Shown here in pieces: positions 2,467 to 22,835 of a stretch of 39,565 bases of DNA. Positions within the stretch are counted from its first letter, which is position 1. Each line of letters begins with the position of its first letter. Both the position numbers and the translations under genes were made by a program. Below the pieces are notes generated by a model. It was not told where the DNA came from. It searched no databases and saw only the letters and a program-made list of their open reading frames with translations. Origin of the DNA: Escherichia phage vB_EcoP_ZX5; sequence record MW722083.1; one strand, given 5' to 3'.

Positions 2467-2490
2467 CATATGTGGTTTTTCAGGTAATAG
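2467..2490 (+). promoter_or_regulatory. conserved promoter-proximal element CATATGTGGTTTTTCAGGTAATAG upstream of the tailspike gene
   Basis: 19 of 24 positions identical to 22812..22835 upstream of the head operon. Confidence 0.4.
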
Positions 2491-2541
2491 AATAACCAGA
2501 TATGCGGCGCAACGGGTGCTGCGACTATCTGGAGATTTAAC

Positions 2542-5500
2542 ATGACGGTCTCAACCGAAGTTGACCACAACGAATACACCGGTAACGGCGTTACGACATC
2601 GTTTCCGTATACTTTTCGAATTTTCAGAAAATCAGACCTGGTTGTTCAGGTGTCTGACCTGAACGGGAACGTAACAGAATTGGTTCTGGATACCGGTTAT
2701 ACGGTAACTGGGGCGGGCACTTATAGTGGCGGTTCTGTGGTTCTTCCGTCTCCGCTTGCTACTGGATGGCGAATTACGATAGATCGTGTGCTTGATGTAG
2801 TGCAGGAGACAGACCTTCGCAATCAGGGAAAATTTTTCCCCGAAGTGCATGAAGATGCCTTTGACTACCTGACGATGCTGATCCAGCAATGTTTTGGGTG
2901 GTTCAGACGTGCATTGATGAAACCATCTTTGCTTGCAAAATATTACGATGCAAAGCAAAACAAAATTTCTAACCTTGCAGATCCATCATTTGAGCAGGAC
3001 GCTGTAAATAATCGCTCAATGCGTAATTATGTCGATGCTGCAATCGCCGGGGTTGTTGGTGGTTTTGGTTGGTTTATTCAGTATGGTTCTGGGGCTGTGT
3101 ACCGAACGTTCCAGGATAAAATGCGTGATGCTATTAGCCCCAAAGATTTTGGAGCTGTTGGTGATGGTATAAATGACGATTCCACTGCAATAAGCGCGTG
3201 CCTTGAAGCCTCATCTCCAGGTTATAAAATTGACGGATTAGGGCTTACTTTTAAAGTATCAACTCTTCCGGATGTCAGTCGATTTAAAAATGCTCGTTTT
3301 TTATTTGAGAGAATACCGGGCCAGCCTCTTTTTTATGCTTCTGAAGATTTTATCCAGGGAGAGTTATTTAAAATTACAGATACACCGTGGTACAACGCCT
3401 GGACGCAGGATAAAACGTTTGTATATGACAATGTCATCTATGCGCCTTTTATGGCTGGAGACCGCCATGGTGTAAATAACCTCCATGTTGCATGGGTTCG
3501 CTCAGGAGATGACGGGAAGACCTGGACAACGCCGGAATGGCTTACAGATTTACATGAAAACTATCCCACAGTTAACTATCACTGTATGAGTATGGGGGTT
3601 GTCAGAAATCGCCTTTTTGCTGTAATTGAGACGCGGACCGTGAGAGGAAATAAACTGCAGGTTGCAGAGTTGTGGGATCGCCCAATGAGTCGCAGCCTTC
3701 GCGTTTATGGTGGTATAACGAAAGCAGCAAATCAGCAAGTCGCTTATATTCGCATTACTGATCACGGATTATTTGCTGGTGATTTTGTCAACTTCTCAAA
3801 CTCTGGTGTTACAGGTGTTACCGGGAATATGACGGTGACTACTGTTATTGATAAAAATACTTTTACAGTTACGACGCAAAATACCCAGGATGTGGATCAG
3901 AATAACGAGGGTAGATACTGGAGTTTTGGTACATCATTTCACTCGTCACCATGGAGAAAAACCAGTCTTGGAACTATTCCTTCTTTTGTTGACGGAAGCA
4001 CTCCTGTTACTGAGATTCACAGTTTTGCGACGATTAGCGATAACAGTTTTGCTGTTGGCTACCATAATGGTGATATTGGTCCACGCGAGCTTGGGATACT
4101 CTATTTCTCTGATGCTTTCGGTTCTCCTGGTAGCTTTGTTCGCAGACGCATACCTGCAGAATATGAGGCGAATGCATCTGAGCCATGTGTAAAATATTAT
4201 GATGGCATTCTGTATCTGACGACCAGGGGGACATTAAGTACTCAACCCGGTAGTTCATTGCACAGAAGCTCTGATTTAGGTACATCATGGAATTCTCTTC
4301 GCTTCCCAAATAATGTTCATCACTCAAACCTTCCTTTTGCCAAAGTTGGCGATGAGCTGATTATTTTTGGCAGTGAGCGCGCATTTGGTGAGTGGGAAGG
4401 AGGAGAACCTGATAACCGTTATGCAGGAAATTATCCAAGAACATTTATGACCAGAGTTAACGTCAATGAGTGGAGTCTGGATAATGTAGAGTGGGTTAAT
4501 GTTACTGATCAGATTTATCAGGGCGGAATAGTTAACTCTGCGGTTGGTGTTGGTTCAGTTTGTATCAAAGACAACTGGCTGTACTACATTTTCGGTGGGG
4601 AAGACTTTCTAAACCCATGGAGCATAGGGGATAACAACAGAAAATATCCTTATGTTCACGATGGTCACCCGGCTGATTTGTATTGTTTCAGGGTGAAAAT
4701 TAAACAGGAAGAATTTGTTTCAAGGGATTTTGTCTACGGAGCCACTCCTAACAGAACGCTTCCTACTTTTATGTCGACGTCAGGCGTGAGGACGGTTCCT
4801 GTACCCGTTGATTTCACAGATGATGTTGCCGTCCAGTCACTGACTGTCCATGCAGGTACATCAGGACAAGTTCGCGCGGAAGTCAAACTTGAGGGTAATT
4901 ACGCCATTATTGCGAAGAAAGTACCGTCTGATGATGTTACCGCTCAGAGATTAATCGTTAGCGGCGGTGAAACAACGTCTTCAGCAGATGGTGCAATGAT
5001 AACGTTGCATGGTTCCGGAAGCAGTACTCCACGTCGCGCGGTATATAACGCACTCGAACATCTTTTTGAGAACGGAGATGTTAAACCTTATCTTGATAAT
5101 GTAAATGCTCTTGGTGGTCCGGGAAACAGGTTCTCGACAGTTTATCTTGGCTCCAATCCTGTGGTTACCAGTGACGGAACATTAAAGACAGAGCCGGTCT
5201 CTCCTGACGAAGCATTGCTGGATGCCTGGGGTGACGTCAGGTATATCGCTTATAAATGGCTGAACGCTGTCGCTATAAAGGGGGAAGAAGGGGCGAGGAT
5301 ACATCATGGTGTAATCGCGCAGCAACTTCGTGATGTTCTTATTTCTCACGGACTCATGGAAGAAGAAAGCACAACATGCCGCTATGCCTTTCTTTGCTAT
5401 GACGATTATCCCGCAGTATATGATGACGTCATTACTGGCCAAAGGGAAATGCCGCTGACTGATAATGACGGGAGCATCATTGTTGATGAGGATGATAATC

Positions 5501-5661
5501 CAGTGATGGTAATGGAAGACATCATTGAGCGCGTTGAAATAACGCCAGCAGGATCTAGATGGGGGGTCAGACCTGATCTCTTATTCTATATCGAGGCAGC
5601 ATGGCAGCGCAGAGAAATGGATAAGATAAAAGAGCGGATTCAGTCTCTGGAAGAACGTTAA
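2542..5661 (+). CDS. tailspike: T7 gp17-like N-terminal anchor, pectate-lyase-like beta-helix signature, C-terminal S74-type intramolecular chaperone domain
   Basis: 1039-aa ORF with GGAGA SD; N-terminus GNGVTTSFPYTFRIFRKSDLVVQV; central DFGAVGDGINDDSTAI motif; C-terminal chaperone-like block. Confidence 0.85.
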   Translation: MTVSTEVDHNEYTGNGVTTSFPYTFRIFRKSDLVVQVSDLNGNVTELVLDTGYTVTGAGTYSGGSVVLPSPLATGWRITIDRVLDVVQETDLRNQGKFFPEVHEDAFDYLTMLIQQCFGWFRRALMKPSLLAKYYDAKQNKISNLADPSFEQDAVNNRSMRNYVDAAIAGVVGGFGWFIQYGSGAVYRTFQDKMRDAISPKDFGAVGDGINDDSTAISACLEASSPGYKIDGLGLTFKVSTLPDVSRFKNARFLFERIPGQPLFYASEDFIQGELFKITDTPWYNAWTQDKTFVYDNVIYAPFMAGDRHGVNNLHVAWVRSGDDGKTWTTPEWLTDLHENYPTVNYHCMSMGVVRNRLFAVIETRTVRGNKLQVAELWDRPMSRSLRVYGGITKAANQQVAYIRITDHGLFAGDFVNFSNSGVTGVTGNMTVTTVIDKNTFTVTTQNTQDVDQNNEGRYWSFGTSFHSSPWRKTSLGTIPSFVDGSTPVTEIHSFATISDNSFAVGYHNGDIGPRELGILYFSDAFGSPGSFVRRRIPAEYEANASEPCVKYYDGILYLTTRGTLSTQPGSSLHRSSDLGTSWNSLRFPNNVHHSNLPFAKVGDELIIFGSERAFGEWEGGEPDNRYAGNYPRTFMTRVNVNEWSLDNVEWVNVTDQIYQGGIVNSAVGVGSVCIKDNWLYYIFGGEDFLNPWSIGDNNRKYPYVHDGHPADLYCFRVKIKQEEFVSRDFVYGATPNRTLPTFMSTSGVRTVPVPVDFTDDVAVQSLTVHAGTSGQVRAEVKLEGNYAIIAKKVPSDDVTAQRLIVSGGETTSSADGAMITLHGSGSSTPRRAVYNALEHLFENGDVKPYLDNVNALGGPGNRFSTVYLGSNPVVTSDGTLKTEPVSPDEALLDAWGDVRYIAYKWLNAVAIKGEEGARIHHGVIAQQLRDVLISHGLMEEESTTCRYAFLCYDDYPAVYDDVITGQREMPLTDNDGSIIVDEDDNPVMVMEDIIERVEITPAGSRWGVRPDLLFYIEAAWQRREMDKIKERIQSLEER

Positions 5662-5687
5662 AAAAAAGCCCGCAATATTTTGCGGGT
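5661..5687. terminator. hairpin just after the tailspike stop (terminator-like; U-tract better on minus strand)
   Basis: 7-bp stem 5669-5675/5680-5686, loop TATT, preceded by A7. Confidence 0.4.
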
Positions 5688-5967
5688 ATCAAAAACGGAG
5701 TTGGTGAAAAGTTATCTTTGAATTCTATCATGAATCAGTACGTATTTTAAATACATGTTCAGGTTTATTACACCATAGCATTATTAAATACAAAATTAAG
5801 TCTATGGTTCCTGTACAACTGCCCCCACTCTGCTGGCTCGTTCTGTAAAATCATTAGTACTTTTATTGAGATATATGATATGGAACAATAATGATTCATA
5901 TATGGTTTACTATGCGGGTTTAGTCATCAATAATTGACTGGCTTATAGATAGTAAACAGGAGAAAGT

Positions 5968-6372
5968 ATGTCTGCTCAAGTAACAAGTGAGCAATTAAAT
6001 CAGTTGCTTAGTTTTGGTTCTCTTGCTGCGGTTATTGCAGGTGTCCCTCCGGAGGTTGCTTTAGGGGCTTTGGCTGGGGCGGTAATTTTTGTTACCTCTG
6101 CAGTAGAGTACCCCATCCGTCGCCGGGTGCTCCTGTCGATGCTCAGCTTTCTTTGCGGCCTTCTCTTTTACAAACCAGCAGCATCAATTCTTATCGGCAT
6201 AGCCAGCCTGATCCCTACCATCACGCAGGACTCTTTTGAAAAAGGGATTGTTTTCTCTGCAGGCGCATTCGTGTCAGCAATTGTCGCTGTGCGTATTGGT
6301 ATATGGCTCTATCACCGTTCCGATAATCCACGCGAGTTAATTCCGGGGAGAAAAGACGATGGTAACGCATGA
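5968..6372 (+). CDS. holin-like membrane protein (about 4 TM segments)
   Basis: 134-aa hydrophobic ORF with GGAGAAAG SD, immediately before the endolysin. Confidence 0.6.
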   Translation: MSAQVTSEQLNQLLSFGSLAAVIAGVPPEVALGALAGAVIFVTSAVEYPIRRRVLLSMLSFLCGLLFYKPAASILIGIASLIPTITQDSFEKGIVFSAGAFVSAIVAVRIGIWLYHRSDNPRELIPGRKDDGNA

Positions 6373-6667
6373 GTTTTTTTTGCTTATCACCAATGCAGTT
6401 ATTTGCACTGGCATAGCAATTCGCGTTGTCACATTCCGGCGTAACGGCTCTCAACATCGAAGGTGGGGAGGATGGCTTGCTTATTTCCTGATTGTTGCTG
6501 CGGCCAGTATTCCTGTTCGAGTCGCCTATGCAATCTGGTTACGTACGCCAATGGCTGTGGATTTATCTGAGGTCATTATCAACGCTGTCATGCTGGCTGC
6601 GGTTATTAAAACGCGCGGTAACGTCGTTCAAATTTTTAAAGTATCGAGGTCTAAACATGGAGATTAA
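6359..6667 (+). CDS. second holin/antiholin-like membrane protein (about 3 TM segments)
   Basis: 102-aa ORF with GGGGAGAAAA SD; overlaps upstream gene by 14 nt and endolysin by 11 nt. Confidence 0.5.
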
Positions 6668-7765: not shown

Positions 7766-7936
7766 CATGGCATTTTTCATGGTACTGATTTCCGGTGACG
7801 GTATATAAAACGGTACGGAAAAAATTGAGATTTGGAAAAATGTTATCACTCAATTGGTTATGGTTATCGTAAATAATTGAGTGGGAATGATTAACAGCTA
7901 ACTCATAGCAACTCATTCCTATTCAGATACTAATTT

Positions 7937-7969
7937 AACCCTCTGTTTTTACAGAGGGTTTTTGTTTTT
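7937..7969 (+). terminator. strong intrinsic terminator after the lysis cassette
   Basis: 10-bp stem AACCCTCTGT/ACAGAGGGTT, loop TTTT, followed by TTTGTTTTT. Confidence 0.75.
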
Positions 7970-8082: not shown

Positions 8083-9333
8083 GTGCTTACCGATACAAAA
8101 TTAAAAAACCTCAAGCCGCAGGACAAACTGTACAAGGTCTCCGATCGTGACGGGCTGTATGTAGCTGTGCTTACGTCAGGTACGGTCTCGTTTCGCTATG
8201 ACTACCGTATCAACGGTCGCCGCGAAACACTGGTAATCGGGCAGTATGGGCGTGACGGTATCAGTCTGGCAGAAGCGCGAGAAGAACTGATTGCTGCAAA
8301 GAAGCTGCTTAAAGCAGGCCAGTCACCGGCTGCGGCTAAACGTGACGGTATCAAAAAGATTCGTGGTGCTGAGACGTTTGCGGTACATACCGACAGTTAT
8401 ATGAAACACGTCATCCTGGCTGACAGTACCCGCGCAATGAAGCAGGCGGTGATCGACCGTGACATACTTCCTGTTCTTGGCAACAAAATGATGGCTGAAA
8501 TTACCACATCGATGGTTCGTGATTTGTGTGACCGGATTGTCGAACGCGGTGGTCGGGCAACAGCAGTGCAGGCCAGGGAGATCATCAGCAGCGTATACCG
8601 TCACGCCAATGACCGTGGTCATGGTTTGTTTAATCCTGCGGCTGACATTAAACCTTCGTCTATCGCCATATTTAAACCACGAGAGCGAACACTGACACCA
8701 GAAGAAATTGGCCTGTTCTTCCGCACGCTGGATGCCATTGGTGCTATGGGCACTATGAAAATGGCTTTAAAGCTGGTGCTTATCACTATGGTTCGTAAAG
8801 GCGAATTCACCAATGCAACGTGGGACGAAATAGATTTTAAAAAATGGACATGGACAATTCCTTCAGACCGCATGAAGGGAAGCCGGGCGCACGTTATTTA
8901 CCTGCCTAAACAGGCACAGGATATATTGGTCGGGTTGCAGATGTGCGCTGGTGGAAGTGAATATCTGGTTCCTGGTCGTTACAACTTCCGGAAGCCATTA
9001 TCTAATGCCGCGCTGAACTCTCTGATCGACAGAACGGTGAAAATAATAAATGAAGATGGTGAGCATATTCAGGACTTCACTGTACATGATATGCGCCGTA
9101 CAGCCAGTACGTTGTTGCATGAGGCTGGTTATCCTTCAGACTGGATTGAAAAGGCTCTGGCACATGAGCAGAAAGGTGTGCGCGCCGTATATAACAAAGC
9201 GGAATACGCCAGACAGCGCGCCTACATGTTGCAGCAGTGGGCCGATATGATTGATTCCTGGATTAACGGGGAGCATACGGATCTGATTCCGTTCTCCCCG
9301 TCGAAGTTTGAGAAGTGGATGGCGGGGGAATAA
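8083..9333 (+). CDS. int: tyrosine integrase, P4-type
   Basis: 416-aa ORF with GTG start; N-terminus LTDTKLKNLKPQDKLYKVSDRDGLYVAV typical of P4-like integrases; C-terminal HxxR...Y catalytic region. Confidence 0.85.
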   Translation: MLTDTKLKNLKPQDKLYKVSDRDGLYVAVLTSGTVSFRYDYRINGRRETLVIGQYGRDGISLAEAREELIAAKKLLKAGQSPAAAKRDGIKKIRGAETFAVHTDSYMKHVILADSTRAMKQAVIDRDILPVLGNKMMAEITTSMVRDLCDRIVERGGRATAVQAREIISSVYRHANDRGHGLFNPAADIKPSSIAIFKPRERTLTPEEIGLFFRTLDAIGAMGTMKMALKLVLITMVRKGEFTNATWDEIDFKKWTWTIPSDRMKGSRAHVIYLPKQAQDILVGLQMCAGGSEYLVPGRYNFRKPLSNAALNSLIDRTVKIINEDGEHIQDFTVHDMRRTASTLLHEAGYPSDWIEKALAHEQKGVRAVYNKAEYARQRAYMLQQWADMIDSWINGEHTDLIPFSPSKFEKWMAGE

Positions 9334-9531: not shown

Positions 9532-10178
9532 GCTGCACGCTCCCGCCCCTGGTTGTCTGTTGGTGACAGCGGAGCATTGCTGAATGCATTTGTTAATCTG
9601 GCAATATCCAACGCGTATCCAGGGTGTAGTTGCACTGCCGGGTCTTCGCACTGATTACCCCAAACATCGAAGCCATGAGACGACTGGCGGGCGAACAGTT
9701 CAATGCGAGAAACATCGCCTAACAATTGCACAAGTTTTTCACGAACGACATCTGGTTTTCTTGAATGCTCAAGCCGCGGTGCGGTAAATGACTGAACGAT
9801 CCCTGCATTAATGCGCGGAGGTAGTTTTCCCTTTACTGCAAACAGGCAATCTTCACTATTGGCGCGAGTCATGTGACCCATACCCATAACCAGTTTATCT
9901 GGTTGTCGACTACCACATTTTATCCACGTGAATCCCTTCATGGTCATCAGACGGAATCCCCAGGCTTCAACAACTTTTAGTGCTTCGAGTGGTTGTGTTG
10001 GCACCCACCACATGGCCAACAGACAGTTTTCATCGGCCAAATCCCACACAGGAAGTCGGCAGATATCCAGCACACTCATAACCGGATATTTAAAACCGGC
10101 ACCGCGATTACCATCTGCGGCTTTGTCCCGGTATACCCAGGGTGGATCTGCATAGATTAGTGTGTATTTCTTAGTCAT
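9528..10178 (-). CDS. N6-adenine DNA methyltransferase, MT-A70 family
   Basis: YADPPW motif near the N-terminus (LIYADPPWVY); ATG 10178 after GGGGTGG SD. Confidence 0.8.
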   Translation of the reverse strand: MTKKYTLIYADPPWVYRDKAADGNRGAGFKYPVMSVLDICRLPVWDLADENCLLAMWWVPTQPLEALKVVEAWGFRLMTMKGFTWIKCGSRQPDKLVMGMGHMTRANSEDCLFAVKGKLPPRINAGIVQSFTAPRLEHSRKPDVVREKLVQLLGDVSRIELFARQSSHGFDVWGNQCEDPAVQLHPGYALDIARLTNAFSNAPLSPTDNQGRERAA

Positions 10179-10470
10179 AAACCACCCCACAACATCCTAT
10201 GCCGCTATAGTCGCCACGGCGAAGGCCGTTACCTTTTGTGATACATTGGTCCCTGCGAACCGCAATCCTTGCTCGCTCAACATCACCAGAAGCAACATCC
10301 ATACACTGAAGCCAAAGGTGAGCGGCAATGCGGAACTGCCCTTTTTTTTCTCTTTCAATCGCGCGTTTTTCGATCTCTATCGCCGCAGGAGTAACGGCGA
10401 CAATCTTTGACGGACTACGCATTGAAACCTTATTCATGTGATATTTTTCAAGTCGGCTTAACTTTCTCAC
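10171..10470 (-). CDS. hypothetical protein
   Basis: 99-aa ORF between the AlpA-like gene and the MTase; start uncertain (internal Met at 10437). Confidence 0.4.
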   Translation of the reverse strand: MRKLSRLEKYHMNKVSMRSPSKIVAVTPAAIEIEKRAIEREKKGQFRIAAHLWLQCMDVASGDVERARIAVRRDQCITKGNGLRRGDYSGIGCCGVVYD

Positions 10471-13181: not shown

Positions 13182-13766
13182 TTATTGTTTGTTTTTTTCG
13201 TTCTGGTTGATGACAAATTCAATGTAACTTTCGATCTTTGCTTTCTCGGTTTCGGGTAACAATGCGTAGCGCGAGCGGTCATAGTTGATGGTCGCAGGGT
13301 CGTGCGGGTGAATCAGTAATTCATAGCCGTGACGCCCGAATGCGGATGCAACATTCTCCAGGGTGGAAATGGAAACGCTGACCTCATTGTTTAACAGGCG
13401 ACTGATTGTCACCTGGGCGACGCCGGATGCGCGGTGAAGTTTTCCCTGCGTTGAAAGGTCGCGGCTTTCGCTCATCCAGCGTTCCAGGTTGTGAGCCGCC
13501 AGCTGACCTATATCGCTCGGGCCGACAGGCTGAAAACCTTCCTGAGAAAGCGAGCGATCGATATCAAGCCAGTTACGTGGTTTATTGGCGGCAGCTTCAA
13601 TTTTTCGCGCAACCTGGTCGCCGATAACCTTCTTGCCAAGAGCCCAGCGGTTTACCAGATTTGCCTGAGTTCCAAGTTTTTCTGCCATCCGCGTCTGAAC
13701 ACCATTGAATTCACGGTCGATCAAGTCGTTGAGATTTTGCCTGCGGACGTCCTGGATACTTTTCAT
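13182..13766 (-). CDS. repressor with two helix-turn-helix motifs (tandem HTH)
   Basis: 194 aa; HTH-like QTRMAEKLGTQANLVNRWALGKK and SGVAQVTISRLLNNEVSVSISTLENVASAF; divergent from the cro-like gene across an operator-rich spacer. Confidence 0.65.
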   Translation of the reverse strand: MKSIQDVRRQNLNDLIDREFNGVQTRMAEKLGTQANLVNRWALGKKVIGDQVARKIEAAANKPRNWLDIDRSLSQEGFQPVGPSDIGQLAAHNLERWMSESRDLSTQGKLHRASGVAQVTISRLLNNEVSVSISTLENVASAFGRHGYELLIHPHDPATINYDRSRYALLPETEKAKIESYIEFVINQNEKNKQ

Positions 13767-13920: not shown

Positions 13921-14151
13921 ATGAGCGATAACGGACATTTCGATTTCAAAAAGCACTGGCTTGCACTTACTCCGGATGAGCGTGAAGCCTTCGCACAGGA
14001 AGCCGGAACGACGAGTCACTATATCCAGACTCACTTAACAGGTAAGCGCAAAATGCCAGGTAAAGTATTGATGAATGGGCTTTTTAAAGCCTGTAAAACA
14101 AGACAATGGCTGCGCTCAAAAGCAGAACTGGCATACTTCTTCTACTCATGA
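13921..14151 (+). CDS. Cro-like small DNA-binding protein
   Basis: 76-aa ORF divergent from the repressor; followed by a terminator. Confidence 0.55.
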   Translation: MSDNGHFDFKKHWLALTPDEREAFAQEAGTTSHYIQTHLTGKRKMPGKVLMNGLFKACKTRQWLRSKAELAYFFYS

Positions 14152-14173
14152 TATCCAGCTACAACCCTCTGTA

Positions 14174-14196
14174 GACCGCCATCCGGCGGTCTTTTC
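14174..14196 (+). terminator. intrinsic terminator after the cro-like gene (tR1-like)
   Basis: 7-bp stem GACCGCC/GGCGGTC, loop ATCC, then TTTT. Confidence 0.6.
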
Positions 14197-14206
14197 ATAT
14201 CTATTC

Positions 14207-14221
14207 GTACCTCAAAGGTAA
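14207..14221. promoter_or_regulatory. palindromic operator-like site GTACCTCAAAGGTAA
   Basis: one mismatch; between the cro terminator and the replication genes. Confidence 0.35.
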
Positions 14222-14299
14222 TAAAAAACCAAATCTGGTTGATCAAATTTTCCAATTGTGCAAAATAGCCAATATCAATAACAAAAAGGGGCGGAAAAA

Positions 14300-14512
14300 T
14301 TGAAGATAGTAACCAGAATGGAGGCCGCAAAAGCCGGGTTAAATCGCTATTTCACAGGAAAGCGGTGCCGTCACGGCCATCTCTCTGAAAGGTATGTTCT
14401 GAACGGAACATGTGTTGAATGTGCAATGAATAGCGCCAACCGCCATCGTAATGAATTTGCTTGTGCACTAAAGAGTGCAAGAGGGGAAACCTATGGCAAG
14501 CAGCTGGATTAA
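14300..14512 (+). CDS. small Cys/His-rich (zinc-ribbon-like) protein
   Basis: CRHGH...CVEC motif; start uncertain (TTG 14300 with AAGGGG SD, or ATG 14318). Confidence 0.4.
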   Translation: MKIVTRMEAAKAGLNRYFTGKRCRHGHLSERYVLNGTCVECAMNSANRHRNEFACALKSARGETYGKQLD

Positions 14513-15323
14513 GGTTGAAGTTATCACTCCTGATAAACCTGAAATTTTTCAGATAGCAGAAATTCTGGGTATTGATCCAGATGCTGTTCTTGGAAAGCTG
14601 GTTCGTATATGGGCATGGGCTGACCAGCAAACAATAGACGGTAACGCTGGCAGCGTTACAAAAGGAGTACTTGATAGACTCGCTTTTATTACAGGATTTG
14701 CTGACGCCCTCATTAGCGTCGGATGGCTTGCTTATCATGACGGCAAACTAATTCTTCCAAACTTTGAGCGACATAATGGAGAATCATCGAAAAAACGTGC
14801 ACTTACGAATAGAAGAGTGGCAGAGCATCGAAAACGAGTAACGCAAAAAGTAACGCCAACAGCGTTACAAAAGGAGTTACCAGAGGAAGAGGAAGAGGAA
14901 GATATATATAAAACCCCACACATAGCGCACGTGCGCGAGGGTGCTCCGACTAGTGAAGCGAACAGTACGCCGTTGCAGGTGGCAGAACCTGAATTTCTGG
15001 ATGGCCTGAGTGAACCCATCGGGAAATTTCCGATGACAGATGGCTGGCTACCGTCGCCAGATTTTCGGCGGCGTGCTGCGCTGTGGGGAACGGCCCTGCC
15101 GGAACCGGAATTTACACCTGCTGAACTTGCTGCATTCCGGGATTACTGGATGGCTGAGGGCAAAGTGTTCACGCAGGTTCAGTGGGAACAAAAATTCGCC
15201 AGGCACGTAAATCATATCAGGGGAAAATCAAAAAATGCCGGGAAAAGCGATGAGCTTGACTGGAATAACACTGACTGGATAGAAGGGGTGTGGGATGAAA
15301 TCAACTCCAGAACTTCTCAATGA
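14493..15323 (+). CDS. replication initiator (lambda O-like by position)
   Basis: 276 aa from ATG 14493 with GAGGGG SD; acidic linker (EEEEEE) overlying a repeat block; directly upstream of the P-like gene. Confidence 0.55.
   Translation: MASSWIKVEVITPDKPEIFQIAEILGIDPDAVLGKLVRIWAWADQQTIDGNAGSVTKGVLDRLAFITGFADALISVGWLAYHDGKLILPNFERHNGESSKKRALTNRRVAEHRKRVTQKVTPTALQKELPEEEEEEDIYKTPHIAHVREGAPTSEANSTPLQVAEPEFLDGLSEPIGKFPMTDGWLPSPDFRRRAALWGTALPEPEFTPAELAAFRDYWMAEGKVFTQVQWEQKFARHVNHIRGKSKNAGKSDELDWNNTDWIEGVWDEINSRTSQ
14838..14936. other. candidate origin of replication inside the O-like gene
   Basis: GTAACGC x2 at 14838 and 14850 plus inverted GCGTTAC 14862; (GAGGAA)3 14883-14900; AT-rich GATATATATAAAA 14901-14913; palindrome GCGCACGTGCGC 14925-14936. 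Confidence 0.35.
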
Positions 15324-16071
15324 GTACGATCGCTTACGTGAGCATGGTGTTGCTGTGCATGAAGAGCGGCGTGACAGCAATGGCAAAAAGGAGCAGGTTG
15401 CTAGAATTTTCAATGAACTATTTGTCCAGTTACAGGCTGCATTTCCTGCAAGCGTTTCGACCATAAGGGAGCAGAACAAACTTAATGAATTCCGTAAGCA
15501 ATGGATGCTTGCGTTTCTGGAGAATGGGATCACTACAATGGAACAGGTTAACGCTGGTATGCGCCACGCCCGCGCCAGTGAATCTCCGTTCTGGCCGTCG
15601 CCAGGGCAATTCATCAAGTGGTGCAAAGACAGCAAGATGGTTCTTGGCGTCACCATTGACGATGTGATGGCGGAGTTTCACCGGTACAGCAAGGAAAAAA
15701 GTTTATATCCTGGTGGTCCCGAAAGATTCCCGTGGCGGCATCCGGTTATGTACTGGGTCGTATGTGATACCCGTCGTGCAATGTATCAGCGCCAGCTTAG
15801 CGAGAGTGAGGTTGAGAAACACGCGCGCAGGCTGCTCGATGATTGGGCGAAAAAGGTGGCTTCCGGACAGCAGATACCCGATCCGGTGATCAGCATACAG
15901 GCAAAGCCAGAGCCCATGAGTACACCTCCGGACACAGGGAGAGACGTTTACCATCCACCAGGGCGAAGTTTCGGGTGCATGCCTAACGCCGCCACCCTTG
16001 GGGGAATAACACCGGCGCAGTGGCTGATGGAGGAATACAGGCGGGGAAAGGCGGCAGGATTTATCAAGTAA
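15295..16071 (+). CDS. replication protein P-like helicase loader
   Basis: block FPASVSTIREQNKLNEFRKQWMLAFLENGITTMEQVNAGMR...PSPGQFIKWC closely parallels lambda P as recalled. Confidence 0.8.
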   Translation: MKSTPELLNEYDRLREHGVAVHEERRDSNGKKEQVARIFNELFVQLQAAFPASVSTIREQNKLNEFRKQWMLAFLENGITTMEQVNAGMRHARASESPFWPSPGQFIKWCKDSKMVLGVTIDDVMAEFHRYSKEKSLYPGGPERFPWRHPVMYWVVCDTRRAMYQRQLSESEVEKHARRLLDDWAKKVASGQQIPDPVISIQAKPEPMSTPPDTGRDVYHPPGRSFGCMPNAATLGGITPAQWLMEEYRRGKAAGFIK

Positions 16072-16108
16072 TACCAGCGCGATAGCGCATTTTTTTACGC
16101 CTCGATAA

Positions 16109-16123
16109 TTACCTGTTAGGTAA
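16109..16123. promoter_or_regulatory. palindromic operator-like site TTACCTGTTAGGTAA
   Basis: perfect match downstream of the P-like gene. Confidence 0.45.
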
Positions 16124-16170
16124 CAAAATATTATAAACTCTATTGATTTCATGTCTTATGTGGTTTTTAA

Positions 16171-16185
16171 TTACCTCAGAGGTAA
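16171..16185. promoter_or_regulatory. palindromic operator-like site TTACCTCAGAGGTAA overlapping the RBS of 16189..16533
   Basis: perfect match; its GAGGT half doubles as the Shine-Dalgarno 3 nt before ATG 16189. Confidence 0.4.
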
Positions 16186-16188
16186 ATC

Positions 16189-16533
16189 ATGAGAAAACAG
16201 ATACAGGCTCTTGGTCGACTCAAAACAGGCCAGATGAACAAAACTGAATCTGCGTATTGCCAGCACCTTGAGCTGCGTAAACGTGCAGGGGAAATCGCCT
16301 GGTATCGATTCGAGGGTATCAAGCTGCGGTTAGCTGACAACACGTTCTATACGCCAGATTTCGCTGTGATGCTCGCCACCGGAGAGATGGAACTGCACGA
16401 AGTGAAAGGTTTCTGGACCGACGACGCCAGGGTGAAAACCAAAGTCGCCGCAGATCAGTATCCGTTCCGAATCATCGGGGTAACGGTTAAACCAAAGAAA
16501 GCAGGTGGTGGCAGGAACATCGAAGAGTTCTGA
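16189..16533 (+). CDS. DUF1064-like phage protein
   Basis: 114 aa; ELRKRAGEIAWYRFEGIKLRL...FYTPDFAV pattern recalled from DUF1064. Confidence 0.5.
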   Translation: MRKQIQALGRLKTGQMNKTESAYCQHLELRKRAGEIAWYRFEGIKLRLADNTFYTPDFAVMLATGEMELHEVKGFWTDDARVKTKVAADQYPFRIIGVTVKPKKAGGGRNIEEF

Positions 16534-16594
16534 ATCGACGATCTTTTTAGTTATCAATGTAATCAATAAGTTATGTGGATAAGCGAGGGTAAAG

Positions 16595-17158
16595 ATGGAA
16601 AGTAATATCAAAGGGTTAGTTGCCGCCGGGCATGAGATGGCTTCGGAACTGAAAGCAGAATGTGGTGCCGTTGATATGCGCAGTGTGGCAAAGCTGATCA
16701 GCGATTTGGCAACGCAACTGGAAGTGCAACTGGTGCGTGCTAATGCGCTGGCGGCGGAGAATGCACTTGCTCGTAAAGCTGTTCAGGCATTCTGTGAGGT
16801 TGTTGGCGACAACACTGAGATTATCTCCGAGTTGGTTGGGCAAGATGGCGTTCTGGTTATTTTGAAGGCCATGAAGGCAACAGGAAATATGTCAGCCACC
16901 GACGCTTTCCTGGCTGAAATACGTGCGGAGGCACGCAACGAGGGGATTAACTACACCGCAAGCCGTCTTGCTGCTGCGTTCAATCACGGATTTATCAATA
17001 AGTCTTTGCGTGAAGTTTTCGACGTTACACGCATGATTTTGTCAGCGAAAGAAGAGTTGGCTAATGAACCGCATCCGATTGATGGCCTGTCCGGTGAATA
17101 TGCGGAGAAATCCCTTGAAGAATGGGCGGAACAGATTCGCAAAGGAGTTCAGTCATGA
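16595..17158 (+). CDS. hypothetical early protein
   Basis: 187-aa ORF with GAGGGTAAAG SD. Confidence 0.55.
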   Translation: MESNIKGLVAAGHEMASELKAECGAVDMRSVAKLISDLATQLEVQLVRANALAAENALARKAVQAFCEVVGDNTEIISELVGQDGVLVILKAMKATGNMSATDAFLAEIRAEARNEGINYTASRLAAAFNHGFINKSLREVFDVTRMILSAKEELANEPHPIDGLSGEYAEKSLEEWAEQIRKGVQS

Positions 17159-17388
17159 GCATCCGAACTGAACATGGATTTGGTCCTTCAACGGTCGAAG
17201 TCGAATGGCTTGATGATTGCCCTAGGTGCCAGCACGGCAAAGCCAGGGTAACAGGATGGTCGGTAACCAAAGATTCTTTGTGGGCGGGTGATGAGGCCGT
17301 TTGTTCCAAATGCGGTCACAAAGGTGAAATCGATGCTGATGGAGAGAATGCCTGGGTGGAATGGGACGAAATCGAGGAGGCACAATGA
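17155..17388 (+). CDS. small zinc-ribbon protein
   Basis: CPRCQHG...CSKCGH motif; ATGA overlap at both ends. Confidence 0.55.
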   Translation: MSIRTEHGFGPSTVEVEWLDDCPRCQHGKARVTGWSVTKDSLWAGDEAVCSKCGHKGEIDADGENAWVEWDEIEEAQ

Positions 17389-18047
17389 GCAACATCGACA
17401 TCGACATCGACATCGACATCGACACACTGGCACTGCGTGAGGCGGCACAGAACGCGAAAGATTTAGGTGGGATTAAGAATTACAAGCGAGGTGAGCAAGC
17501 TGTTGCCGAATTTGAGTCCTTGATAACGCCACACATTGTGCTGGCACTGCTGGATGAGAACGAAAGCATGTGCCGCGACCTCATTGCTCGCAATGGTGAG
17601 ATTGAAGGGCTTCGAAAACTGGTTGCTGAACTTGAGGAGACAAAATCACAACTCAACGAGCAGCGTGAGTATTACGAAGGCGTTATCTCTGATGGGAGCA
17701 AGCGTATTGCTGAACTGGAGAAAAGCGAAGAGCAACTCATTAACGAGCGTGACCATGCTGAGTCTGCTTTAGCTGATATGTATTTTGCAGCAACCGGGGA
17801 TAGGCCTGAGTGGAGTAACTGGTTCGGTTTTTCAGATGCAGTAGATGCCGTAGTTGACAGAATTGCTGATTTAGAAGCTAAACAGCCATCGCCAGTAGTA
17901 CCTGAAGGACTGATTAAAGCGGTGCGTTTTTATGAGCAGGTAAAACGTGAGAACCCGCCAGTCGAAACCGGAGCATGGAAAGACGCTGTTGACTGGGTGC
18001 TCAAAGAGGCTTGCCAGGCTGTAAACATTGGCATCAAAGGAGAGTGA
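17385..18047 (+). CDS. coiled-coil protein with N-terminal (Ile-Asp)5 repeat
   Basis: 220 aa from ATG 17385; MSNIDIDIDIDIDTL. Confidence 0.55.
   Translation: MSNIDIDIDIDIDTLALREAAQNAKDLGGIKNYKRGEQAVAEFESLITPHIVLALLDENESMCRDLIARNGEIEGLRKLVAELEETKSQLNEQREYYEGVISDGSKRIAELEKSEEQLINERDHAESALADMYFAATGDRPEWSNWFGFSDAVDAVVDRIADLEAKQPSPVVPEGLIKAVRFYEQVKRENPPVETGAWKDAVDWVLKEACQAVNIGIKGE
17394..17423. repeat. hexanucleotide tandem repeat (ATCGAC)x5 within coding sequence
   Basis: five perfect tandem units read directly. Confidence 0.9.
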
Positions 18048-18048
18048 G

Positions 18049-18240
18049 ATGAACGGACAAATATCAATTGTTCGACCGGTAGCATGTGACGATAGCGAGA
18101 TACGAATGATTATTCGTCTGGCAATGGGGAAAACAATAACTGCTCTCATTACTCCTGAAAATCTCGCATTAGCGTTAACAGGAAAGTCAGACCTGCCAGT
18201 AGAGCTAAAGCTGCGAAATGTTGAGATTAAGGTGAAATAG
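18049..18240 (+). CDS. small hypothetical protein
   Basis: 63 aa from ATG 18049 with GGAGAG SD. Confidence 0.45.
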   Translation: MNGQISIVRPVACDDSEIRMIIRLAMGKTITALITPENLALALTGKSDLPVELKLRNVEIKVK

Positions 18241-18242
18241 CT

Positions 18243-18857
18243 ATGACCACTATTACCAAAGAACGTATCGAATTATTCATTAAAAATCCGCTTGATAACG
18301 GACTTACCCGTGGCGAACAAATGGAACTGGCACGAATTGCTCTGGCATCGCTGGAAGCAGAGCCGATAGGTTTCCGTTGCAGGCGCAATGATAACCTTGG
18401 TGATTGGAGTTACGTATATCATCGAGAGCCAGATGATTTTGAGCGCAAACATTTAGTGATAGAGGGCATTTACGCCGCCCCTCCAGCACCGGTAGTGCCG
18501 GATGAACGTGCAGCTTTCAATGCCTGGAACAACGACGAGAACCTACCCATAGCTGGTGTCGGCGCAAAAAACGCTGCCTGGTTAGCTTGGCAAGCCCGCG
18601 CAGAGTTGGGCCGCTCGTTAGCTGTAAACTCTCCGGGAACTCCGGATAGTTGGATAAGCTGTAGTGATCGAATGCCGGAAGACACCAAAATGTTACTGGC
18701 ATTTAGTCAAGGTGAAATCGTGGCAGCATATTGGAACTGGGTAATGAGTCCAATTGATTACAAAAAATATAGAGCTTTCACATATTTATCAGGAAATATC
18801 TTGGATGACGTAACCCACTGGATGCCACTACCGGAACCGCCGCAGGAGGCGAAATGA
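18243..18857 (+). CDS. DUF551-like phage protein
   Basis: C-terminal THWMPLPEPP motif typical of DUF551 as recalled. Confidence 0.55.
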   Translation: MTTITKERIELFIKNPLDNGLTRGEQMELARIALASLEAEPIGFRCRRNDNLGDWSYVYHREPDDFERKHLVIEGIYAAPPAPVVPDERAAFNAWNNDENLPIAGVGAKNAAWLAWQARAELGRSLAVNSPGTPDSWISCSDRMPEDTKMLLAFSQGEIVAAYWNWVMSPIDYKKYRAFTYLSGNILDDVTHWMPLPEPPQEAK

Positions 18858-19207
18858 TGGACTATTCACAGTTAAGTGATTTTGAAATTAACAGAATGGT
18901 AGGAGACATAATTTTTAAAGGCCTTTGGGCGTGTAAACCGGAAACATCAGGGAATAACACCAACAAATGGTATTACGGAAATACTGATACAACTTTTGAG
19001 CCATTAAACCCTTTACCTGACTACTGCAATAATCCATCGGATGCATGGCCTATTATTGTTGATAATAAAATCAGTCTAACCTGCCACCATTCTCGCGGTG
19101 AGTGGTCAGCTGTTTTTAATACCGAGAACATTTGCTTTCATGCGAATAATCCACTCAGAGCCGCCATGATTGTATTTCTCATGATGCAGGAAAATCAGAA
19201 TGGCTAA
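18854..19207 (+). CDS. hypothetical protein
   Basis: 117-aa ORF, ATGA overlap with upstream gene. Confidence 0.5.
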   Translation: MMDYSQLSDFEINRMVGDIIFKGLWACKPETSGNNTNKWYYGNTDTTFEPLNPLPDYCNNPSDAWPIIVDNKISLTCHHSRGEWSAVFNTENICFHANNPLRAAMIVFLMMQENQNG

Positions 19208-19538
19208 ATCAGCAGCAGAGCGCAAAGCCGCTCAGAGAGCCAGACAAGTTGCATCTGGTGTGCGTAAGCTGGAAATTGTGCTTGATGCTCAGGAAATTGA
19301 AATGCTTGAGCGTAACTGTGCCGCGCGTCGCCCCGGGCGTGCGCCTTACGAATTTGGTGAGTATATAGCGTTACTGATCCGCCAGGATGATGCACGCGTG
19401 CACGGGCGTATAAAATCGATCAGCAGAAAACGTTGCGGTAAGTGCGGCGAGAGAGTTCCAGTTAATTCATGTCCGTGTAATGGTGACTCACAATGCTGGG
19501 TGACTAAAGGCTGGCATGAAACGAAATTAATAGTGTGA
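19200..19538 (+). CDS. small zinc-finger protein, candidate late-gene regulator
   Basis: 112 aa; C-terminal CGKCGERVPVNSCPCNGDSQC; last gene before the terminator preceding terS. Confidence 0.5.
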   Translation: MAKSAAERKAAQRARQVASGVRKLEIVLDAQEIEMLERNCAARRPGRAPYEFGEYIALLIRQDDARVHGRIKSISRKRCGKCGERVPVNSCPCNGDSQCWVTKGWHETKLIV

Positions 19539-19546
19539 CATGTCAC
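19535..19546. repeat. 12-bp perfect palindrome GTGACATGTCAC (copy 1) overlapping the stop codon of 19200..19538
   Basis: exact match, one of three copies. Confidence 0.9.
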
Positions 19547-19587
19547 GAGTAGATTATGCATGATGAATTTGATGGGTTTTGAATACT

Positions 19588-19613
19588 GCCGCCAACTATG
19601 GCGGCTTTATTTT
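19588..19613 (+). terminator. intrinsic terminator between the early-right operon and terS
   Basis: 7-bp stem GCCGCCA/TGGCGGC, loop ACTA, then TTTATTTT. Confidence 0.7.
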
Positions 19614-19624
19614 GCATGGTACTA

Positions 19625-19639
19625 TTACCACAACGGTAA
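19625..19639. promoter_or_regulatory. palindromic operator-like site TTACCACAACGGTAA just upstream of terS
   Basis: perfect match inside a longer near-palindrome CATGGTACTATTACC...GGTAACTATTACCATG. Confidence 0.45.
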
Positions 19640-19647
19640 CTATTACC

Positions 19648-20253
19648 ATGGTGGTTATGATGCCTGCTGAACCTAAAACCTATAAACGCAAATCAACGCA
19701 ATTTAAGCCACTAACAGCAATGCAGGAGGCTTATTGCCAGTCATACATCAAAACGCCTGAAAACCAGACTCAGGCAGCGATTAACGCAGGATTCTCTCCA
19801 AATACAGCGGCAGTTAAAGCCAGTGTCATGATGCGCGATGAACGCATTCAAAAACGGATTGCCGAGTTGATGGAGGAGCGCAACAAACGAATGCGCGTCA
19901 GTGCCGATTACGTTCTCATGCGCCTGGTGGAGATCGACCAGATGGACGTGATTGATATCCTCAACGACGATGGGAGCCTTAAGCCAATCCGCGAGTGGCC
20001 GAAAATCTGGCGCACTACGCTTAGCGGCTTTGATCTGTCATCGACCATCATGAACATGAACGAGGATTCGATAGAGACAATCCTCAAAAAAATTAAATGG
20101 CCTGACAAGGTGAAGAACCTCGAACTGATTGGTAAGCACGTCGACGTCAACGCATTCAAAGAACGCCTGGATGTTAATGTGAATGTGACAATTGCTGATC
20201 GCATAGCGGCAGCCAGGAAGCGACTCAAAGAACGTCAGGATGGTAATCAGTGA
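19648..20253 (+). CDS. terS: terminase small subunit
   Basis: 201 aa from ATG 19648; the track start 19579 would span a terminator and operator; position immediately before the large subunit. Confidence 0.7.
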   Translation: MVVMMPAEPKTYKRKSTQFKPLTAMQEAYCQSYIKTPENQTQAAINAGFSPNTAAVKASVMMRDERIQKRIAELMEERNKRMRVSADYVLMRLVEIDQMDVIDILNDDGSLKPIREWPKIWRTTLSGFDLSSTIMNMNEDSIETILKKIKWPDKVKNLELIGKHVDVNAFKERLDVNVNVTIADRIAAARKRLKERQDGNQ

Positions 20254-21725: not shown

Positions 21726-21775
21726 TCCGTTAGCGGGGATAATGACGGAGATATCCTCTGGTGAGGATAAAACAA

Positions 21776-21800
21776 AGCCAGCTCATCGGCTGGCTGTTTG
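21776..21800. terminator. hairpin between convergent terL and the minus-strand moron
   Basis: 7-bp stem AGCCAGC/GCTGGCT 21776-21782/21789-21795; U-tract better on minus strand. Confidence 0.45.
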
Positions 21801-21811
21801 TGACATGTCAC
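21800..21811. repeat. 12-bp perfect palindrome GTGACATGTCAC (copy 2)
   Basis: exact match 5 bp past the stop of 21816..22154 and abutting the hairpin. Confidence 0.9.
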
Positions 21812-21815
21812 GGTG

Positions 21816-22154
21816 TTATTGCTCGCTTAACTTCTGCTTCAGCAAGTAACCTTCAAGCATCCAGATTTTGTTTACAGCATTCTGCCGGGCAATCTTCCGA
21901 CCAATTTCCGCATCAAAGTTTTCTGGGCTTGCACAGGCGCTCTCTCCGGTGACGGTGAAGCCATTTTGTAGAGTTAATACACAAAATGTCAGCAGAGCCA
22001 AACTGTCGTGATAGTCATCGCCAGTTGCAATAGCTCCATCAGCAGCAGTGAAGTACGTTTCCGCAAGAATAATGCTTTCGATATGGTCTGGCGTAACGCG
22101 CGGGGCGGCTAAACCTTTAGCCTGAATTTCAGATTCAATGTCTTTGTCACTCAT
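21816..22154 (-). CDS. hypothetical protein (possibly N4 gp49 / Sf6 gene 66 family), minus-strand moron in the late region
   Basis: 112 aa with AAGGTGA SD; family guess from recollection only. Confidence 0.5.
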   Translation of the reverse strand: MSDKDIESEIQAKGLAAPRVTPDHIESIILAETYFTAADGAIATGDDYHDSLALLTFCVLTLQNGFTVTGESACASPENFDAEIGRKIARQNAVNKIWMLEGYLLKQKLSEQ

Positions 22155-22170
22155 AGTCTATTCTCACCTT

Positions 22171-22193
22171 AAAAAATGCCCGGCGAACCGGGC
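22171..22193 (-). terminator. terminator-like hairpin immediately upstream of the moron RBS
   Basis: 6-bp stem GCCCGG/CCGGGC 22178-22183/22188-22193, loop CGAA; A6 on plus gives U6 on minus. Confidence 0.45.
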
Positions 22194-22270
22194 GAACTGG
22201 AGGCAATGAGTTATGCCTCCCGTGGCTGTACTGGTTTACAGCATGAAGTCATCGCAATGGCGTCCTGCTG

Positions 22271-22313
22271 TAAAAATGGCGGTGATAGTCCTTCAAGGGA
22301 AACCATCACCGCC
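22271..22313 (-). terminator. tRNA-trailer terminator-like hairpin
   Basis: 8-bp stem GGCGGTGA/TCACCGCC 22278-22285/22306-22313 with 20-nt loop; A-run 22272-22276 on plus gives U-run on minus. Confidence 0.4.
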
Positions 22314-22356
22314 AAGCCCCTGGAACTTCTGGCATCACGGTCCTTAGGCGTGATTC

Positions 22357-22433
22357 TGGCGTGGCATGCAGGATTCGAACCTGCGACCAACCGCTTAGAA
22401 GGCGGTTGCTCTGTCCAGCTGAGCTAATGCCAC
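22357..22433 (-). tRNA. tRNA-Arg (anticodon UCU), CCA encoded
   Basis: 77 nt; acceptor GTGGCAT/ATGCCAC, D-arm GCTC...GAGC, anticodon arm ACCGC-CTTCTAA-GCGGT, T-arm GCAGG-TTCGAAT-CCTGC, discriminator G, CCA. Confidence 0.85.
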
Positions 22434-22755
22434 AACGCTGAGAGCACTTAGCCTGTTAAGGCGCCACACTTTGTCGCGGCTCCATAAATGCTCTCATCGT
22501 TGTACCCTCGTCTCTTCCGAGGCGTCACACCGAATCGCCGGGATGGTGAATCCCCGTGCGCGGAATAAAACCGCTCGACTTGCACATTCCGGCTACCTGG
22601 TTCGTTTGCCCGAGCAAGGGAGGGTGCCCCTTAAACGTATCCAGACCGCTATCGGCGCATGTGCCATACGCCGTACTGCTCAAAATAAAAGCTCACTCCA
22701 CCTGTTCAATTTAACGACAAGCCAGTCAGGTTAGTAACCGGAATGAACTCTTTGG

Positions 22756-22770
22756 TTACCTGAAAGGTAA
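22756..22770. promoter_or_regulatory. palindromic operator-like site TTACCTGAAAGGTAA upstream of the head operon
   Basis: perfect match, identical 17-mer to 2423..2439. Confidence 0.45.
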
Positions 22771-22811
22771 TAATTTGTGCGTTAAATGTCAACTACCTAC
22801 GATAAATAAAT

Positions 22812-22835
22812 CATATGTGGTTAAATTGGTAATAA
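22812..22835 (+). promoter_or_regulatory. conserved promoter-proximal element CATATGTGGTTAAATTGGTAATAA upstream of the head operon
   Basis: 19 of 24 identical to 2467..2490. Confidence 0.4.

Follow-up and report, generated by a model that had tools for sequence, protein, structure and literature searches.

Conserved operator-coupled elements upstream of the tail-spike gene and the head operon of Escherichia phage vB_EcoP_ZX5 as candidate repressor-silenced promoters

Which signals restart rightward transcription in the late region of a temperate phage when that region is interrupted by leftward genes? The genome of Escherichia phage vB_EcoP_ZX5 (MW722083.1), the 39,565 bp of which were analyzed in full and are called the window here, contains two such interruptions, one between terL and the head genes and one before the tail spike. 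Precisely at the two points where rightward transcription would have to resume reside two similar 24-mers, CATATGTGGTTTTTCAGGTAATAG before the tail-spike gene and CATATGTGGTTAAATTGGTAATAA before the head operon. The window is as long as the genome published for vB_EcoP_ZX5, a temperate E. coli podovirus (PMC9782041), and its nearest relatives in the databases are epsilon15-like phages of the genus Uetakevirus, phiV10 and TL-2011b among them. A previous inspection (the sequence-only reading) had taken the 24-mers, each together with an identical operator-like palindrome, for a common late-promoter architecture and possibly the target of a phage activator. We find that the 24-mer is a genus-wide, previously unannotated cis-element, which would belong to a kind already known, the repressor-gated phage promoter. 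That the two copies form the cores of two paralogous repressor-silenced promoters, P_tail and P_head, is our preferred explanation, to which we assign about an even chance on the basis of sequence comparison.

Two 24-mers at a fixed distance from an upstream operator

The tail and head 24-mers lie where they had been placed (Table 1) and are identical at 18 of 24 positions, one fewer than first counted. The shared bases comprise an 11-base block, CATATGTGGTT, and, after five differing bases, the 7-base GGTAATA. A match of at least 18 between the two upstream stretches was reached in 0.36% of 5000 dinucleotide shuffles (P ~0.004), and the match within the window, taken alone, is only moderately unlikely. 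An identical 17-bp palindrome, TTACCTGAAAGGTAATA, indeed precedes both 24-mers, and its claimed distance of 45–55 bp was about right: the 24-mers begin 44 nt (tail) and 56 nt (head) after the palindrome start, with gaps of 27 and 39 nt, respectively, from the palindrome end.

Decisive support for the 24-mers being real comes from comparison with relatives. The pattern GGTT-N5-GGTAAT occurs exactly twice per genome in seven complete genomes of phages from E. coli, Salmonella, Enterobacter and Klebsiella, once before the small gene that precedes the portal gene and once before the gene for the tail fibre or tail spike. Prophages of 12 further enterobacterial genera carry the head copy as well, albeit altered in Buttiauxella and Pantoea, while relatives in Proteus, Providencia and Morganella lack the element and the operator as well. 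In Klebsiella phages, a regulatory stretch of ~100 bp is the sole part of a 561-bp query that can still be aligned at the DNA level. Alignment of 17 head and 16 tail non-redundant sequences shows conservation in CATAT, in GGTT and in GGTAATA with the TAnnnT behind it, whereas NN, N5 and the bases between operator and element are free to vary. At the head, GGTTAAATTGGTAATAATTT is nearly invariant in 17 non-redundant relatives from ~10 genera. A pattern scan of IMG/VR returned, outside Uetakevirus, matches scattered inside coding sequence only.

Measured between centers, operator and element are 62 bp apart in all of 128 head copies and 50 bp apart in 127 of 128 tail copies. The 28-nt spacer of the tail copies, by contrast, comes in 46 versions, with a median pairwise identity of 0.50 and a minimum of 0.18. 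Retention of spacer length without retention of spacer sequence shows, as judged from these alignments, that operator and element work together. L142, the one departure from the tail spacing, carries another gene upstream and regains homology exactly at ATCCATATGTGG: everything from ATCCATAT onward is retained while the upstream module is replaced. As homology resumes at the edge of the box, the element travels with the tail gene. Note that mosaic joints at the edges of CATATRTGGTT were seen twice: L142 (2980–3000) diverges just 5′ of the tail box, and ZX5 (5897–5915) parts from TL-2011b and epsilon15 directly 3′ of the box at the lysis promoter. Covariation of operator half-site and GGTAAT could not be exploited, because all Uetakeviruses found use TTACC, even at 42% repressor identity.

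The left part of the element is not confined to the structural operons. While TATGTGG alone occurs at chance rate in the window (4 copies versus 4.1 expected), TATRTGGTT is present in four copies versus 0.56 expected, a number that none of 100 shuffles reached. All four copies lie on the plus strand between genes, each ahead of an operon start. Besides the structural operons, the ATGTGGTT core occurs before the lysis cassette (5897–5907), a copy that had been overlooked, and in the resolvase promoter region (16155–16165). TATGAT follows the homologs of the lysis copy in epsilon15, Tyrion, BUCT554 and TL-2011b. The resolvase-operon promoter consists of TTGATT (16143–16148) and TTTAAT (16166–16171) at a distance of 17 bp, and its half-box is kept, with variation, in seven genomes. 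Of the two shorter recurrences listed in the sequence-only reading, ATGTGGTTTTT had been placed 2 nt off and actually occupies 16158–16168, whereas TTATGTGG is indeed present at 16571–16578. The latter copy is, from its sequence, better described as a DnaA box and set apart from the others, because TGTGGATAA (16574–16582), read on the other strand, matches the DnaA box TTATCCACA perfectly; by chance the window would contain about 0.3 such sites, and a function is not implied. This match lies 13 nt ahead of the ATG of the open reading frame (ORF) 16595–17158 and is identical in TL-2011b. The 24-mers themselves were also compared with the DnaA box and agree at 8 of 9 (head) and 6 of 9 positions (tail); only the 16572 copy fits.

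Repressor operators and promoter features

In ZX5, the inverted repeat TTACC-N5-GGTAA (at most one mismatch) occurs 14 times versus 0.6 times expected. They lie to either side of the repressor and cro genes, in OL- and OR-like positions, and also ahead of nearly every operon. In the epsilon15 RefSeq record (NC_004775.2), ATTACC-N5-GGTAAT is marked 'protein_bind repressor' before gp3, the tail fibre gene, terS, OL and the resolvase gene. The palindrome part of the architecture is thus an already known repressor site, while the homologous 24-mers of epsilon15 (2987–3010 and 19939–19962) are unannotated, and promoter features and the fixed 50/62-bp coupling are likewise absent from the record. 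Both ZX5 palindromes, at 2423 and 22756, have the inverted repeat and the 24-mer does not: it carries only the right half, GGTAAT, and reads NNGGTT at the position of the left half. This GGTAAT is identical to one (right) operator half-site and abuts the −10 hexamer. The presumed binder of the palindromes and, judging by the half-site identity, of GGTAAT is the immunity repressor Rep, a homolog of Rep from phage SPC32H. SPC32H Rep is described in PMC9638917 as binding palindromic DNA as a tetramer in which the paired DNA-binding domains stem from different dimers.

Operators of ZX5 abut the −10 hexamer or lie in the spacer of good sigma-70 promoters, namely PL, PR, the c4-ant promoter and that of gene 155–703, so that an operator within the promoter is the normal mode of this repressor here. 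PR has one operator in its spacer and a second one 48 bp upstream. This spacing of the OR pair is near the 50 bp of the tail element, and the 62 bp of the head element recur, in all genomes compared, as the distance within two canonical operator pairs, that of OL (13048/13110) and that of the resolvase promoter (16109/16171). As a side observation, a terminator-like hairpin is followed by one or two operators within ~15–20 nt at three points of the rightward early operon (Table 1); at the start of terS, one of these points, an own promoter is not obvious.

Promoter similarity was scored with a simple sigma-70 weight matrix. When the 24-mer is extended by three bases, the tail copies read TTCATA (TCCATA in E. 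coli phages)-17-TAGAAT. In 17 of 20 non-redundant representatives it outscores every other site within 130 nt. Its scores are 7.9–11.9; random 130-mers of the window reach 5.7 in the median and 12.0 at the 99th percentile. Across genera the tail −10 appears as TAGAAT, TAAAAT, TAAACT or TACAAT with T1, A2 and T6 fixed, and by sequence the changes are confined to positions tolerated in real −10 hexamers. A2 and T6 and overall closeness to TATAAT characterize the tail variants as well as the two candidate −10 hexamers of the head copy, TAATTT and, 2 nt upstream, AATAAT. The −35 resembles TTGACA at four of six positions in most genera (TTCATA) and at three in the E. coli phages (TCCATA) and at the head (ATCATA). 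The conserved GGTT and GGTAA are located in the promoter spacer. Lysis promoters of epsilon15, Tyrion and BUCT554 combine the left box with TATGAT and an operator, and the distance from operator to −10 is 49 nt both there and in the tail promoters. On these sequence features, a promoter is likely at the tail copy and plausible at the head copy. Alternative head promoters, xTGTCA-17-AATCAT and TTGATG-18-TACGAT, are unconserved across genera, a promoter on the minus strand of the 24-mer would have no −35, and none of the consensus sequences for IHF, CRP, sigma-54, sigma-32, sigma-E and Fur, compared by eye, fits the conserved blocks.

The tail leader following the predicted −10 can form a hairpin without a U-tract, the 5′ arm of which starts 2 nt past the −10 in ZX5 and 0–2 nt past it across representatives. 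Such a hairpin is predicted in 14 of 14 representative tail leaders, with the 3′ arm over part or all of GGAG. These are single-sequence folds, as RNAalifold on a MAFFT alignment recovered the inner GC stem only, the alignment being too poor for the outer stem. The arm sequences vary yet stay complementary (CCAGATA/TATCTGG, TCCAGA/TCTGGA, ATCTCC/GGAGAT, GCTTC/GGAGC, GGATGG/CTATCC). This and the coverage of the Shine-Dalgarno sequence suggest that the modeled hairpin may gate translation of the tail spike.

Near the head copy, a leftward promoter candidate (22764–22792, minus strand) was noticed with a TTGACA −35 at 22787–22792, a 17-bp spacer and the −10 TACCTT (22769–22764) inside the head operator. 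Even relatives from Pantoea, Proteus and Providencia keep this TTGACA, which is replaced by TTGACC or TTGACT in some and by TTGACT in Morganella. Given its conservation and the −10 within the operator, the head operator may control divergent promoters. The candidate points to an unannotated stretch of ~310 nt (22434–22755) and the tRNA-Arg gene at 22433–22357. This tRNA-Arg(UCU) gene (22357–22433, minus strand) is followed by a strong terminator (22277–22314, minus strand) and is antisense to ORF 22176–22427, the TL-2011b homolog of which is annotated as a coding sequence (phrog_4647) and may be spurious. The ~310 nt upstream of tRNA-Arg are conserved, GC-rich and without a match in Rfam, and the epsilon15 record places an RNase III site in the homologous stretch.

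Table 1. Positions of elements, operators, candidate promoters and genes in the vB_EcoP_ZX5 window
Feature	Position	Strand	Remarks
Tail 24-mer	2467-2490		CATATGTGGTTTTTCAGGTAATAG
Head 24-mer	22812-22835		CATATGTGGTTAAATTGGTAATAA
TATRTGGTT, tail spike	2469	+	
TATRTGGTT, lysis cassette	5899	+	
TATRTGGTT, resolvase operon	16157	+	
TATRTGGTT, head operon	22814	+	
Third left half-box	5897-5907	+	CATATATGGTT; upstream of holin/lysis cassette; without GGTAAT part
Fourth left half-box	16155-16165	+	CTTATGTGGTT; in resolvase-operon promoter spacer, between operators 16109 and 16171
Full operator, tail	2423-2439	.	center 50 bp from GGTT-N5-GGTAAT center; epsilon15 homolog 19895-19911 (before tail fibre gene)
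Full operator, head	22756-22772	.	center 62 bp from head element center; epsilon15 homolog 2931-2947 (before gp3)
P_tail candidate	2465-2493	+	contains tail 24-mer; TCCATA −35-like 2465-2470; GGTT 2474-2477; GGTAAT 2483-2488; −10 TAGAAT 2488-2493; 17-bp spacer
P_head candidate	22810-22838	+	contains head 24-mer; ATCATA 22810-22815; GGTT 22819-22822; GGTAAT 22828-22833; −10-like TAATTT 22833-22838 or AATAAT 22831-22836
Predicted tail leader hairpin	2496-2532	+	3′ arm covers part of Shine-Dalgarno GGAG (2531-2534); ATG at 2542
Hairpin plus operator, after cro	14173-14221		
Hairpin plus operator, before resolvase promoter	16077-16123		
Hairpin plus operator, before terS	19588-19657		
Large Ant gene	1078-1773		second antirepressor
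Small gene, probable antirepressor	2089-2346	-	SPC32H type, 85 aa; divergent from tail-spike gene; related to Ant C-terminus
Tail-spike gene	2542-5661	+	ATG at 2542
Holins/lysis cassette	from 5968	+	ATG at 5968
Integrase	8083-9333		
Rep, immunity repressor	13182-13766	-	SPC32H Rep homolog (PDB 5D50, E = 4e-42); PHROG and Pfam helix-turn-helix hits
Cro-like gene	13921-14151		replication genes after it
Resolvase gene	starts 16189		
phrog_536 'regulator'	19200-19538		directly before terS
Terminase genes	up to 21725		
Head and tail genes	from 22861	+	

A proposed repressor-bridging mechanism and the rival explanations

In the explanation we favor, rightward transcription would resume after each interruption by leftward genes, at P_tail for the tail-spike gene and at P_head for the head operon. 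The left block CATAT-NN-GGTT would overlap a weak −35 (TTCATA, TCCATA or ATCATA) and form part of a genus-specific box that also marks the lysis and resolvase promoters, while the right block GGTAAT would act as a half-site for the immunity repressor, abutting or overlapping the −10 (TAGAAT, TAATTT). We infer that a tetrameric repressor of the SPC32H type could place one pair of DNA-binding domains on the full operator and the other pair on the half-operator in the spacer, and that this bridging would shut both promoters in the lysogen. Products of the two ant genes, one of them preceded by a LexA box, would relieve repression, after which the host sigma-70 RNA polymerase would use both promoters, possibly aided by a phage factor reading the left box. 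A tail transcript starting ~7 nt after TAGAAT would begin within the 5′ arm of the leader hairpin and lose most of this arm, such that only promoter-initiated RNA, and not read-through RNA, would expose the ribosome-binding site of the tail-spike gene.

Several observations weigh against this explanation. The conserved GGTT is unlike TTACC, the left half of the operator, so that the 24-mer is no true operator and repressor binding to it is a prediction from sequence. Spacings of 50 and 62 bp differ in helical phase. The head copy is weak by the sigma-70 matrix and not a top hit, with ATCATA-17-TAATTT matching at six of 12 positions, and a canonical promoter is not consistently predicted there. 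The distance from left box to −10 varies over the four promoters (10, 7, 1 nt) and is therefore a poor fit to a fixed −35-type element or to an activator site at a fixed position. If the whole leader hairpin functioned as RNA, transcripts would have to start upstream of the predicted start. Finally, the accessible literature yielded no transcript-start or binding data for any Uetakevirus, and the ZX5 and phiV10 papers are without promoter mapping.

The conserved bases, above all those of CATATRTGGTT, could instead be the site of a dedicated phage activator, as at the activator-dependent promoters of P2 Ogr, Mu C or T4 MotA, with the palindrome adding lysogenic silencing only. The element is a promoter in this case, too, and the difference from the favored explanation resides in the reader of the conserved bases. 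Such an activator would account for the poor or missing −35 of the head and lysis copies, for a left box common to three late operons (head, tail and lysis) and for the conservation of GGTT and GGTAA in a spacer that RNA polymerase alone does not read, and two uncharacterized 'transcriptional regulator/activator' genes are available, 19200–19538 (phrog_536) and 10171–10470 (PerC-like phrog_868). However, the box also resides in the resolvase promoter, which does not belong to a structural operon, its distance to the −10 is inconstant, and the scanned regulators do not include homologs of known late activators or antiterminators such as Q-, N-, Ogr- or C-like proteins. The phrog_536 protein comprises 112 aa, is Cys-rich and N15 gp46-like, and has a basic N-terminus and a C-terminal CxxC...CxC...C arrangement. 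It has no match in Pfam, NCBIfam or PDB, including the Ogr family, its AlphaFold model is poor (pLDDT, the predicted local distance difference test score, of 57), and its homologs reside in N15, phiKO2 and phages of Yersinia, Vibrio and Aeromonas that have unrelated late regions. Families of lambda Q-type antiterminators were likewise not hit among the proteins encoded in 13921–19538 or the others scanned, and the tail leader hairpin, having no U-tract, does not provide the terminator that follows a pR′-type late promoter. We consider a dedicated activator rather unlikely. Of the sequence-only reading, the conserved architecture before both structural operons stands, while lateness and a phage activator are conjectural.

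A different class of explanation places the function in RNA or denies it altogether. If the 24-mer were transcribed from upstream, a hairpin with a GGUAAU loop could be a signal for processing, stability or antitermination. The head copy can indeed fold as GUGGUUAAAUU-GGUA-AUAAUUUAAUUGC (−8 kcal/mol, z = −3.7), the tail 24-mer of ZX5 pairs CATATGTGGTT with AACCAGATATG at 10 of 11 positions (z = −3.3 for the fold of 2460–2545), and the epsilon15 record predicts RNase III sites in neighboring leaders. Yet the tail pairing is missing in epsilon15 and Tyrion, where folds are weak (z = −2.0 and −0.4) and share no stem. The head stem consists of A-U and G-U pairs throughout and hardly varies, which leaves covariation uninformative, and AACTTAA in Kluyvera breaks one pair. 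Moreover, an upstream promoter that would feed such an RNA is not consistently predicted. We regard an RNA-level element as highly improbable. Much the same is true for a functionless relic, i.e., a duplicated segment or a short homology linker for mosaic recombination, which we consider quite improbable. Identical palindromes before both copies are what a duplication would give, and the joints at the box edges, immediately 5′ of ATCCATATGTGG in L142 and immediately 3′ of CATATATGGTTT in the ZX5 lysis region relative to TL-2011b and epsilon15, would suit a linker. A duplicated segment, however, would not be expected to share two short blocks only, with differing bases between them, and invariance of these blocks across genera despite substitution-saturated flanks points to purifying selection. 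The spacing, too, is kept without sequence conservation.

Bolder readings go beyond the favored promoters. The late operons for head, tail fibre and lysis might run without a lambda-style cascade, each from its own promoter marked by CATATRTGGTT, read by a phage factor and clamped by one bridging Rep tetramer, with the tail hairpin restricting translation; we hold this composite scheme to be doubtful. In a variant suggested by analogy, Cro or Rep bound at the palindrome may act from about −70/−80 as a phi29-p4-like switch that shuts the leftward promoter and activates the structural one. If the favored explanation is true, promoters would be assigned to the head, tail-fibre and lysis operons in a genus in which late transcription is, as far as we found, undescribed. 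Reporter phages (phiV10) and serotype-converting prophages (epsilon15) come from this genus, as does a repressor/antirepressor switch that has been studied structurally (SPC32H). The immunity repressor would then directly control structural operons, and the second pair of DNA-binding domains of its tetramer would have a concrete use. Conserved cassettes of ~30 bp could serve as repressor-gated promoters in phage engineering and as markers of prophage module boundaries.

Antirepressor genes and comparison with known systems

Further features of the window concern lysogeny. The attP core ATTGAGTGGGAATGATT is found at 7876–7892, 191 bp ahead of the integrase gene, matching PMC9782041, and the same paper shows ORF21 to act as a repressor in ZX5, in agreement with the assignment of Rep. 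A perfect LexA box, CTGTATATTTATACAG, at 2368–2383 precedes the 85-aa gene 2089–2346. By its family, this gene probably encodes a small LexA-controlled antirepressor of the SPC32H type, in which case ZX5 carries two antirepressor systems. The ORF list has a 126-aa version that starts at 2469 and overlaps the 24-mer; this start is probably wrong. Rfam matches upstream of the large ant gene, both on the minus strand, are to a C4 antisense RNA (1821–1906) and to the isrK small RNA (1931–2006). The c4-ant module resembles immI of P1 and P7, and an operator (2043–2057) abuts its −10, TATATT.

How do the elements compare with systems described before? The repressor sites annotated in epsilon15 (NC_004775.2; Kropinski et al. 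2007) are the same sites as the upstream palindromes of ZX5. Positive control offers a second set of parallels. Promoters activated by P2 Ogr, Mu C and phi29 p4 likewise combine a weak −35 with a phage-specific box near the promoter that is shared by several late operons, and the ZX5 operators are centered near −70 (tail) and −80/−82 (head) of the predicted starts, which are typical positions for an upstream activator of the phi29 p4 kind. Unlike P2, the variable 28- and 40-nt spacers of the ZX5 type do not conserve the TGT-N12-ACA recognized by Ogr/Delta near −55, and a dyad of the Mu C type is absent from the elements.

The Rep/Ant switch of SPC32H was reportedly worked out by Kim & Ryu (2013) and Kim et al. 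(2016). ZX5 resembles this phage (PDB 5D50, 5D4Z) in the homology of Rep (E = 4e-42) and in a small gene with a LexA box that diverges from the tail gene. For ZX5 we propose that Rep bridges a full operator and a half-operator within a structural-gene promoter, an idea that is, as far as we found, unreported. For the tail leader, lysozyme gene e of T4 offers a parallel, since McPheeters et al. (1986) are said to have located its late promoter inside the hairpin that sequesters the ribosome-binding site. Transcription there initiates inside the 5′ arm of a hairpin hiding the Shine-Dalgarno sequence, as we predict for ZX5, so that read-through RNA is untranslatable and promoter-initiated RNA translatable. 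The T4 late promoter, however, depends on gp55/gp33 and the −10 TATAAATA, whereas the ZX5 tail promoter is sigma-70-like, and its start and the translational effect are predicted.

At OR/PR and OL/PL of lambda, operators similarly overlap or flank the promoter hexamers and one oligomer binds paired sites, and PR of ZX5 looks much like P_tail. In lambda, however, late genes are driven by the Q cascade and not controlled directly by the repressor, while ZX5 has operators before nearly every operon (14 sites). The stoperators of mycobacteriophages L5 and L1 are repressor sites that are also scattered in large number over the genome, including the structural region, and through them the repressor acts directly on late operons. 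Stoperators are asymmetric 13-bp sites that lie inside transcription units and block elongation, whereas the sites in ZX5 are palindromes located at promoters and accompanied by a half-site partner.

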